Shown here: in pieces, positions 27,343 through 29,290 of the stretch
How the letters are laid out: each line of letters begins with the position of its first letter
Numbering within the stretch: the first letter of the stretch is position 1
NCBI GenBank assembly: GCA_963836075.1
Contig: CAWIIB010000009.1
Span: 3,330,442-3,394,441, forward strand
Source of the DNA: an uncultured Acidobacteriota bacterium
GTDB taxonomy: Bacteria; Acidobacteriota; JAQAZP01
Reading direction: 5' to 3'
Length of the DNA stretch: 64,000 nt
The notes under the pieces: model-generated
Database searches by the model: none
Seen by the model: only the letters and a program-made list of their open reading frames with translations
Told to the model about the DNA's origin: nothing
Program-made: the position numbers and the translations under genes

Positions 27343-28611
27343 TCAGTTCCAGAAGGGCAGCGGAATCACTTCCTCGACGGAGGCCTTGTAGTCCTCCTCG
27401 TCATCGTCGTCCCCGGTACGCTTCGATTTGTCCTTCGGTTCGAATTTCACGCGGCAGACATAGACCCCGATCTCCAGCCCGCTGGCAGTGGTTGTGGCAG
27501 CCTTGTCCGAGTATTTGTCGCTTTCCTTCTCCTCCTCGGTCAGGTTCTCCGGATCGGATCTCAGGGGCCAGAACTCCCAGGGATACTCGATCAGGTGCCG
27601 GCCCAAAGCTACCGTGGCCGAACCCGAGAATCCGACCACTGACATCTCCATTCTTCCTTCCCTGCGCACAATAATGACGATGCCGGCGTCCTCCTTCGCC
27701 GGTATCCAGGGGCAGAGATCCCACGGGCCCTCCTTGTCCTTCAGGAAGTAGGTGCCGGGGATCGACGGCGGGTGCTTTTTGTCGAACTGTTTTTTCTTCC
27801 TGGCCTCATCGCAGGTCTTCTGATATAGCTCCGGGTTCCAGTCTTCGAAGTTCGGCGGGAATACATCACCGCCGAAGCAGCTTCTCACCGTCCGGTCGAA
27901 ATCGCGGTAACAGAGATAGAAGGGCACCACCGGCGGCCCGGATGCCGGAGAGAAGGGCTGGCAACCGAAGAGGTTGGCCACCGTGCACTCCACCAGGTAG
28001 TTTGCGCGCTGGCTGCCCAGCAGGATCACGCTCTCCTCGGGATTCCGCGGCAGGATTTCCCGGTCAAAGGTTCTGGTCGCCCGGTCACGGTCTTTGTCGA
28101 ATTCGCAGCCTTCCTGGCAGGGCTGGTTCCAGGTGTAGTGGAACGGGATGAATCGCGTGTGCACTGACGGTCGATACTGGCCCATGTCACTGGTGGAGGA
28201 GAGGCGCCCGGTGAACATCGACGCCACCTCGGCATCGCGCCGGGACACCGAGCGGTGGGCCGGCACGTGGGGCAGGTCCCGGTGGGCCTGCTGGTATTCG
28301 CCCAGATAGATGGTGACCCACCTCGATTTTCCAAAGGCCAGCCACAGTTTGGACTCCCGGGAGCCGAAGAGGGCACCGGGTAGGATGGAGGGATCGAAGA
28401 GCCCCTTTTCGATGTCACTCTTCTTCTTGACCAGAATCCAGCGGCAGATGTTGCTGAGAACCTTGAGGGAAGGGTTGCTTATTTCGTTGGTCAGGAGGGC
28501 GCCGATGGTATGCCGGTGGACTTTGCATGCCTTGGCCAGTTCCTTCCTGAACCCGTGTGTATCGAGGCCGTAAAGCTTCAGGAATTGTTTCAGCCTCAGT
28601 TCGATCTGCAT
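27343..28611 (-). CDS. HTH (XRE-like) domain protein, otherwise uncharacterised
   Basis: N-terminal ...LKQFLKLYGLDTHGFRKELAKACKVHRHTIGALLTNE... helix-turn-helix-like segment; acidic C-terminus; divergent from the ubiquitin-like operon. Confidence 0.5.
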   Translation of the reverse strand: MQIELRLKQFLKLYGLDTHGFRKELAKACKVHRHTIGALLTNEISNPSLKVLSNICRWILVKKKSDIEKGLFDPSILPGALFGSRESKLWLAFGKSRWVTIYLGEYQQAHRDLPHVPAHRSVSRRDAEVASMFTGRLSSTSDMGQYRPSVHTRFIPFHYTWNQPCQEGCEFDKDRDRATRTFDREILPRNPEESVILLGSQRANYLVECTVANLFGCQPFSPASGPPVVPFYLCYRDFDRTVRSCFGGDVFPPNFEDWNPELYQKTCDEARKKKQFDKKHPPSIPGTYFLKDKEGPWDLCPWIPAKEDAGIVIIVRREGRMEMSVVGFSGSATVALGRHLIEYPWEFWPLRSDPENLTEEEKESDKYSDKAATTTASGLEIGVYVCRVKFEPKDKSKRTGDDDDEEDYKASVEEVIPLPFWN

Positions 28612-29290
28612 CGTTCCGCCCTCCCCGAATAAATCACTGATGCCCGGTGATGACTACCGGATCTGCTGTCTGCTGGTGCCGGCCCATGGTTGAAATCGGG
28701 CCCGACTCCAATTTTTTTTGGTTTTTTTTACCTCCTGCGATTTGTCAGTCCCCAAGACTTTTAAAGAATGTTCATAAATTGACACTGTCAAATATCCCGA
28801 TTGTCCACAACAATCCCGGATATGTCGGCTGTGCGGAAGCATTTGGCTTCCCGATGGCGCATCCTCCGCTCCATCATAGTCCATTCGATTGTGAAATGTC
28901 CATAATAAATTACATTGTATTTGAATTATTATGGATAATTAAAACTGACATGAAACCATATATATGTATACTGAGATTCTACACGACTGTACAATAAAAA
29001 TCGGCAAAAGTGCAGAAAATTGCTGTTTTAATTCAAATATGAGGCTCTTGACGTAATTGATTTGAGGTATTAGGTTCAATATATCTCGTTTGTGTGTGTT
29101 GAATTTCTTTTTTAATCTTCTGTGGCTAATGATGAAAAGTGACAGCTTAAGACAACATATCTTACTTGTTCAGATTTTGCTCGATAGGATAGAAAAAGTG
29201 TACATATCGGAATTTCAGGTGTCAAGCGTCATGGAGTTTAACCGGAGGGCGGTGCGCAACCGGGCACCGGTCATTGGGAGGTGAATAGAG
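28612..29290. promoter_or_regulatory. AT-rich intergenic region between divergent genes (likely promoter/operator region)
   Basis: ~680 bp with conspicuous AT-rich core (about 28700-29230) in an otherwise ~65-70% GC window; no convincing ORF. Confidence 0.45.

Follow-up and report, generated by a model that had tools for sequence, protein, structure and literature searches.

Bacterial counterparts of the operons that combine RING, E1, E2, Ub, and JAB components were reportedly predicted by Burroughs, Iyer, and Aravind in 2011. Defense islands and the ubiquitination-like Bub operons of bacteria have been reported to be regulated by CapW/BrxR, in which a helix-turn-helix (HTH) domain is joined to a WYL domain, and by the CapH+CapP pair (PMC11601596). 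RING/E1/E2/Ub/JAB operons of the Caldiarchaeum type are described in PMC5654768 and PMC3082918. Here, we analyzed a 64,000-nucleotide stretch of contig CAWIIB010000009.1 (assembly GCA_963836075.1, forward-strand positions 3,330,442 to 3,394,441) from an uncultured Acidobacteriota bacterium, which is referred to in its entirety as the window. It contains an inserted island with a ubiquitin-like (Ubl) conjugation operon of the RING/E1/E2/Ubl/AAA/JAB type, which differs from the Bub/Bil operons and resembles the Caldiarchaeum type in encoding a ThiF-E1, an E2-like protein with an HPN...Cys motif, a small Gly-ending protein, a Prok-RING-like protein, and a JAB peptidase; it additionally encodes an Mpa/ARC-like AAA ATPase and a second ThiF. 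As with CapW/BrxR and CapH+CapP, a mobile island carries an HTH regulator next to a bacterial operon of the ubiquitination-like type, and in the window the two are transcribed divergently across a long AT-rich gap. This arrangement is of an ordinary, known kind, and it is the regulator family that is new; neither this family nor a conserved long AT-rich control region is mentioned in the available sections of PMC11601596, PMC5654768, and PMC3082918. Our preferred interpretation, to which we assign a probability of about 0.62, is that the protein is an island-encoded, signal-sensing repressor that acts upon divergent promoters in the gap. The components that are central to this interpretation are as follows.

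27337..39294, no strand: inserted island of ~11.96 kb, consisting of the HTH gene, the AT-rich control region, and a Ubl-conjugation-like operon of 12 open reading frames (ORFs)
27343..28611, minus strand: regulator gene, 422 aa, XRE/Cro-C1 HTH (aa 1-68) plus a C-terminal alpha/beta domain of ~350 aa
27346..28401, minus strand: C-terminal domain of the regulator (aa 71-422), an undescribed family with the invariant motifs GSQRxNYLxE, PSCFGG, DAG, and FGFSG
28612..29290, no strand: AT-rich divergent control region, 679 bp, GC 0.41, AT core at ~28700-29230
29291..29932, plus strand: first gene of the operon (213 aa), whose C-terminus has a Prok-RING_1-like zinc finger at 25.4 bits (Pfam cut-off 29.1 bits, not reached)

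The gap extends from the regulator ORF (27343-28611, minus strand) to the RING ORF (29291-29932, plus strand), both of which have strong GGAGG-type ribosome-binding sites ahead of their start codons. An earlier sequence-only reading of the window had described a ~680-bp AT-rich intergenic region as its sole markedly AT-rich stretch, and both the coordinates and the description were correct. As measured in 200-bp windows, GC content is 0.29-0.45 over 28700-29200 and reaches its minimum of 0.285 at 28891-29090 (z -6.7 against a window mean of 0.643 with a standard deviation of 0.054), while the next-lowest value outside the gap in the entire 64 kb is 0.45. The same reading had judged the HTH gene and the first operon gene to be lower in GC than their surroundings, which also agrees with the calculated values (59% and 60%, respectively, versus 64-69% for their neighbors), even though the deviation within coding regions is modest. 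The deficit of the HTH gene lies mostly at codon positions 1 and 2, i.e., in its amino acid composition, and its own GC content at third codon positions (GC3) is 0.79. The gap yielded no competing content for the regulator interpretation: an Rfam search of 28612-29290 with E up to 1 returned zero matches, a hidden small gene was rejected since the six-frame segments of five homologous gaps are similar only at the HTH N-terminus, and structured RNA was likewise rejected, as folding relative to shuffles gave z-scores of -0.59 for 28612-29190 (minus strand) and -0.60 for 28980-29290 (plus strand).

To place the gap in context, homologues of the HTH protein were collected together with their flanks, which yielded 58 genome loci and 80 metagenome loci. 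The HTH gene is located head-to-head with a RING-first operon in six independent loci, with the following gap lengths.

Window: 679 bp
L066 (regulator 62% identical): 674 bp
L001/L069: 677 bp
L074: 584-671 bp
L015: 530 bp
L070: about 900 bp

Over all head-to-head loci, the gaps span 530-929 bp and fall 9-23 GC points below their own locus; their 200-bp minima are 0.28-0.37, and the hosts have a GC content of 51-64%. Four of the loci share a gap length of ~671-680 bp in the absence of sequence conservation, and the alignments of the window gap with those of L001/L015 and L066/L067 are mostly noise with only short blocks in common. Because the HTH gene, the long AT-rich gap, and the operon recur together in unrelated hosts, the gap belongs to the module, and its AT-richness and length are conserved, intrinsic properties of the module control region in hosts of 51-64% GC, rather than merely the residue of a low-GC donor or a by-product of host composition. 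Nine further loci from this collection are linked but rearranged or have an extra gene inserted between the regulator and the operon (L013, L048, L079, L096, L112, L004, L014, L016, and L049), and the linkage as a whole crosses phyla. In a neighbor-joining tree of the HTH proteins, the Ubl-linked members are spread over deep branches, and there is also a large Phycisphaerae clade found in ordinary chromosomal contexts. Such a conserved regulator-gap-operon linkage suggests that the operon is tightly regulated.

The divergent gene had previously been called XRE-like, and this assignment was borne out at the level of its family. The window protein itself scores 19.2 bits against Pfam HTH_26, which is below the 22-bit cut-off, while of 37 family members, HTH_26 matches are present in 35 (best E 4e-7) and HTH_3 matches in 12. 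Its N-terminus has the five-helix lambda-repressor-like fold, and the top structural matches of the HTH domain include Stl and ImmR. For the C-terminal domain, nothing was found in Pfam (searched with 37 members), NCBIfam, or PADLOC, there were zero matches among PDB sequences, and a Foldseek search of the regulator against PDB and BFVD matched only the HTH part. The first search recovered 39 family proteins among 5.8 billion, none of which is an orthologue of the HTH protein with >62% identity, and when 1.84 billion representatives were scanned in full by HMMER using the C-terminal domain, 221 clusters were identified, nearly all of which have the same HTH-plus-domain architecture. The regulator family is rare and previously undescribed, and we would place its window member among the one-component regulators of the XRE family, as one that has a new sensor domain.

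Comparison with described regulators leads to the same placement. Unlike CapW/BrxR, the window regulator has no WYL domain (Pfam, 37 members, E up to 5; no PADLOC match), and unlike CapH+CapP or ImmR+ImmA, it has no adjacent metallopeptidase, as its neighbors are host DNA and the RING gene. With ImmR of ICEBs1, Stl of SaPI, and lambda cI/P22 C2 it shares an N-terminal five-helix XRE HTH followed by a larger C-terminal domain. In those repressors the C-terminal domain receives the signal and the gene is divergent from the genes that it controls, roles that we propose for the window counterpart as well, and relatives of the window regulator adjoin conjugation genes. However, the window C-terminal domain is unrelated to theirs, there is no anti-repressor or protease partner, and the island is devoid of mobility genes. 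As for the LacI/GalR one-component regulators, in which an HTH is combined with a two-lobed sensor resembling periplasmic-binding proteins, the window HTH is XRE-type rather than LacI-type, no Peripla_BP match was found in 37 members, and the fold similarity is too weak for a claim of homology.

An indication of how this family might act upon DNA comes from a sister subfamily. At ~20 Phycisphaerae/Sedimentisphaerales loci (within L017-L043), the palindrome AWATGGCTA-N6-TAGCCAWAT occurs three times, always at -117, -72, and -41 from the regulator's own start codon, and the same phasing is present in the Ubl-linked locus L048 as well as in L019 and L037. These phased palindromes form a clear candidate operator set of the Phycisphaerae-type (group-C) subfamily and resemble the signature of an autoregulated repressor. 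A position weight matrix of this operator was also applied to the window gap and rejected there, with a best score of 3.0 bits; since the group-C matrix has no match, the window subfamily must use a different half-site, if it binds in the gap at all. The window gap has its own set of candidate elements.

28712..28729, no strand: two T8 tracts 10 nt apart, TTTTTTTTGGTTTTTTTT
28779..28791, no strand: perfect 13-bp palindrome TTGACA-C-TGTCAA, candidate operator, 167-179 nt upstream of the HTH start codon
28873..28902, minus strand: sigma70-like site TGGACA-18-TATGAT directed toward the HTH gene (consensus match; the -10 ends 261 nt upstream of the HTH ATG)
28899..28935, no strand: perfect 10-nt inverted repeat TCCATAATAA-N17-TTATTATGGA (arms 28899-28908 and 28926-28935), second candidate operator
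28945..28972, plus strand: sigma70-like site CTGACA-16-TATACT directed toward the operon (consensus match; the -10 ends 318 nt upstream of the RING ATG)
29197..29225, minus strand: sigma70-like site TTGACA-17-TACACT directed toward the HTH gene, beside the operon start (consensus match; 585 nt upstream of the HTH ATG)

The TTGACA-C-TGTCAA palindrome occurs once in the 64-kb window (0.04 expected), is also found in L067 at -174 to -164, and is partly retained in L066, even though the surrounding DNA of both is poorly alignable. The 10-nt inverted repeat is flanked by the two back-to-back -35-like hexamers of outward-pointing sigma70-like sites. If these central sites are real promoters, they would produce a ~260-nt HTH leader, a divergent core of ~115 bp, and a ~310-nt operon leader, and similar operon-directed sites are located 279-289 nt upstream in L066, L001, and L074. 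L066 also has both hexamers of the 29197-29225 site unchanged (TTGACA-18-TACACT, 514 nt upstream), even though the spacer and the surroundings differ. Runs of A/T are the main k-mers common to all seven homologous gaps, and the phased A/T tracts at 28712-28729 suggest intrinsic DNA bending. In two other loci, a TGGCA-N7-TGCCA palindrome is situated mid-gap (L001, ~9623-9639; L015, ~9721-9737), which also fits the -24/-12 spacing of sigma54 promoters. A sigma54 promoter was considered as a general feature and dropped because this palindromic element is restricted to L001 and L015, with no counterpart in the window, L066, or L067.

Taken together, we propose a one-component factor that joins a novel alpha/beta sensor domain of two lobes to an XRE-type HTH and travels with the Ubl operon, and for which the gap would serve as the module's own divergent control region, with back-to-back central promoters, leaders of ~260 nt (HTH) and ~310 nt (operon), and operator palindromes. 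The protein, presumably as a dimer or oligomer, would bind the palindromic operator(s) in the gap, repress its own gene, and keep the operon silent until a signal to the C-terminal domain, possibly a ligand or a protein-level event, triggers its release. Several observations weigh against this proposal. The TTGACA-C-TGTCAA palindrome itself includes a -35 consensus, while 3% of composition-preserving shuffles reach an inverted repeat of 10 nt (p about 0.03) and the repeat at 28899-28935 is not conserved in L066 or L067; both candidate operators are tentative. The four sigma70-like sites found in the gap, compared with an expectation of 1.5 +/- 1.3, are not a compelling excess, and all promoter positions in the gap are predictions from consensus matches. 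The failure of the well-supported group-C matrix in the window belongs here as well, as does the fact that L013, L079, and L096 retain the linkage without an AT-rich gap. At roughly three quarters of the 58 genome loci, the family member is not beside a recognizable Ubl operon; since most members lack one, the family is not exclusively a Ubl regulator. Nor did the island yield a mobility gene that would account for its movement. The choice of repression over activation, like the identity of the window operator and the nature of the signal, is likewise a provisional component of the proposal.

Control at the RNA level would offer a different reason for the length of the gap, namely that it is transcribed, such that long leaders or overlapping antisense transcripts form the switch and the HTH protein is only one of its inputs. 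The antisense version of this model would rely upon face-to-face promoters, i.e., the HTH-directed site at 29225-29197 and the operon-directed site at 28945-28972. We consider either version unlikely, even though the hexamers of the distal HTH-directed promoter are identical in the window and L066 despite their different spacers and surroundings, four loci have operon-directed sites 279-318 nt ahead of the RING start, and it is the ~671-680-bp length of the gap, not its sequence, that is kept in four loci. The absence of Rfam matches in the gap and folding energies that are no better than those of shuffles both argue against it, the gaps are too divergent to align for covariation, and every promoter call that it depends upon is a consensus match. 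A second possibility is xenogeneic silencing, in which the AT tract with its phased A/T runs mainly serves to bind a nucleoid-associated protein of the host, the foreign operon is silenced by this protein, and the HTH protein is a counter-silencer or activator. The AT core is indeed extreme for a host of 64% GC, and both the predominance of A/T runs among the k-mers shared by seven homologous gaps and the two T8 tracts 10 nt apart at 28712-28729 would suit such binding. However, the gap is AT-rich relative to the host in 51-53% GC hosts too, which points to a module-intrinsic feature, and in the sister subfamily the position of the autoregulatory operators close to the start codon suggests repression. 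Silencers of the H-NS, MvaT, Lsr2, or Rok type are not known to be established in the lineages that carry the module, and we regard this explanation as decidedly improbable.

A further model treats the protein as primarily a mobile-element immunity repressor like ImmR, Stl, or cI, for which the Ubl operon is incidental cargo rather than the dedicated target. At 13 Desulfobulbales-type loci (L005-L012, L018, L045, L046, L058, and L062), the HTH homologue is divergent from excisionase-like, replication-initiator-like, sigma-like, and TraL/TraE/TraK/TraB-like genes across AT-rich gaps of 460-520 bp, an arrangement reminiscent of a conjugative element at its regulatory end. In L013 (Planctomycetota), the gene of a 412-aa ParB-like protein with a GxRR motif region (8033-9271, minus strand) separates the RING gene from the HTH gene, which it adjoins, and the JAB and second ThiF genes at the end of the operon form a PRTRC-like pair; this combination recalls the ParB-related/ThiF-related (PRTRC) cassettes of mobile elements. 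The structural matches of the HTH domain to Stl and ImmR fit this model as well. Nevertheless, integrase, excisionase, replication, and transfer genes are all missing from the window island, and a plasmid or phage origin was rejected, as tblastn returned zero matches in 72,556 plasmids and 50,697 phages. Moreover, the Desulfobulbales conjugative-element clade is nested within the Ubl-linked members of the tree, and because of this nesting, linkage to a Ubl operon seems to have come first. We regard an immunity repressor with incidental cargo as very unlikely. The least probable model, which we mention as a long shot, makes the regulator a substrate of the Ubl ligase: the island's E1/E2/RING proteins would tag a loop of the regulator, and the Mpa-like AAA ATPase would extract or unfold the tagged repressor. 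There is a disordered, charged, Lys-containing, low-confidence loop at aa 349-381 (DNA 27469-27567), which measures 27-41 residues and is mostly Lys/Arg-rich in regulators located head-to-head with a canonical operon, compared with 11 residues in relatives that are not so paired and 18 residues in members of the conjugative-element clade. It might just as well be a linker specific to the clade. We saw neither a proteasome gene nor a protease gene in the island, whose only peptidase domain is the distal Prok-JAB. If true, tagging of the regulator would constitute a self-contained, ubiquitin-dependent transcriptional switch and a bacterial analogue of the eukaryotic transcription factors that are controlled by degradation.

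A dedicated regulator that has a sensor domain and is transferred together with its operon gives experimental access to the questions of what triggers bacterial RING/E1/E2/Ubl operons and which purpose they serve: anything that binds to its C-terminal domain, or modifies it, becomes a candidate activating signal, and the 679-bp control region is defined and directly suited to footprinting and reporter assays. In addition, the family extends the one-component regulators by a sensor domain that matches nothing in Pfam or PDB, and it is reused beside conjugative-element genes. Should the protein be a plain repressor answering a common stress, the result would be a useful annotation only.

We next consider the island itself, which the sequence-only reading had presumed to be horizontally acquired. 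By blastn, positions 7104-12661 of the relative L063 correspond to window positions 44787-39303, and L063 12685-17453 corresponds to window 27336-22594, thus placing the island breakpoints at window positions 27336 and 39303; from these breakpoints it follows that ~11.96 kb (window ~27337-39294) is extra. The site is empty in five relatives (L148, L063, L064, L150, and L065), all of which are represented by long contigs and have an ABC-F orthologue that is 79-86% identical. In L148, L063, L150, and L065, CarboxypepD_reg comes immediately after the ADI-like gene with no island present, while L064 has no ADI-like gene and instead has a 63-aa ORF ahead of CarboxypepD_reg. The histidine-kinase and sigma54-regulator genes come next in those relatives whose contigs reach that far, and the same genes flank the island in the window, where the ABC-F gene lies beyond the operon side. 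The insertion point is directly 3' of the stop codon of the host ADI-like gene and precedes a retained host palindrome (TTCGACAATTTCGTCGAA, 27313-27330), which belongs to the following feature.

27300..27331, no strand: host hairpin GCCCCGGTTCGAC-N6-GTCGAACCGGGGC, outside the island; its core palindrome TTCGACAATTTCGTCGAA follows the ADI-like gene in relatives

Both edges of the island lie close against the regulator-operon module, with the HTH stop codon being within ~5 nt of the left junction. In a neighbor-joining tree of ABC-F, the window is grouped together with L148, the sister clade consists of L063 and L064, and L065 and L150 branch off more basally. The absence of the island from the closest relative, the sister clade, and the basal relatives favors a single gain on the window's branch, although in a single-gene tree one or two losses would also be conceivable. 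Composition is not uniform either: GC3 is 0.777 for 12 island genes versus 0.833 for 36 host genes (Mann-Whitney p=1.9e-4), and the relative synonymous codon usage distance between island and host is 0.068, whereas random 12-gene host subsets yield 0.035 +/- 0.007 with 0 of 500 reaching 0.068. The deviation of the island genes is real but modest. Thus, the presumption of horizontal acquisition stood, as the region is not conserved at this locus across the lineage, five relatives lack the island, and its GC3 and codon usage deviate. The window is free of tRNA genes, the island genes do not encode any integrase-like domain, and the island edges have no long direct repeat. A candidate target-site duplication was rejected because only 4 nt (CTGA) are common to both junctions. 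The host ABC-F protein is only 56-59% identical to those of genera such as Sedimenticola and Geoalkalibacter.

The remainder of the operon (29944..39175) is encoded entirely on the plus strand downstream of the RING gene.

29944..31191, plus strand: ThiF/E1, 85 bits
31268..31945, plus strand: E2-like protein, 225 aa, with an HPN...Cys motif
31950..32765, plus strand: 271-aa protein
32779..33081, plus strand: Ubl-like protein ending in Gly, 100 aa
33172..34362, plus strand: 396-aa protein
34340..36127, plus strand: Mpa/ARC-like AAA ATPase (pup_AAA 87 bits, weak proteasomal OB domain)
Between the AAA ATPase and Prok-JAB genes, plus strand: 134-aa and 316-aa proteins
37440..38348, plus strand: Prok-JAB peptidase, 33 bits versus a cut-off of 25
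38345..39175, plus strand: second ThiF, end of the operon

The family of the RING gene is present in at least 10 loci. The 225-aa protein is classified as E2-like because HPN...Cys is invariant in its family and an hhalign alignment to human UBE2D2 (E 9e-4) is in register. Members of the 100-aa family terminate in a conserved P(K/R)THLG-stop, which is what a ready-to-activate Ubl would be expected to have; its hhalign comparison to ubiquitin was negative, so the Ubl assignment derives from size and the ...THLG stop. Within the RING coding region, a sub-threshold match to dauA at 29790-29882 on the minus strand (31.3 bits versus a gathering score of 45, E 0.021) is the sole Rfam match within 26500-30000, and we judged it to be a chance match. 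At the right end of the island, the interval 39176-39294, which separates the final gene of the operon from the stop codon of the host ADI-like gene, contains two CATTGCGAG-containing repeats and a CCCCG-AGGGG-CGGGG hairpin, which may be a terminator or the remnant of a repeat element.

Other minor observations concern the host site and the linked loci. L065 has ~6.5 kb of other genes (Fur, CCP_MauG, Metallophos, SoxA-like, and Peptidase_C25) between ABC-F and the ADI-like gene (12097-18393), and L064 is missing the ADI-like gene at the host locus (11909-12330), so the site looks like a hotspot of gene gain and loss. Lastly, in L004/L039 (1-2600 of contig_26377 from a Phycisphaerales metagenome-assembled genome), a divergent Ubl cluster with an embedded HTH gene adjoins two Pup_ligase-family genes that flank a 64-aa ORF, and two different protein-tagging systems are therefore adjacent at this locus.

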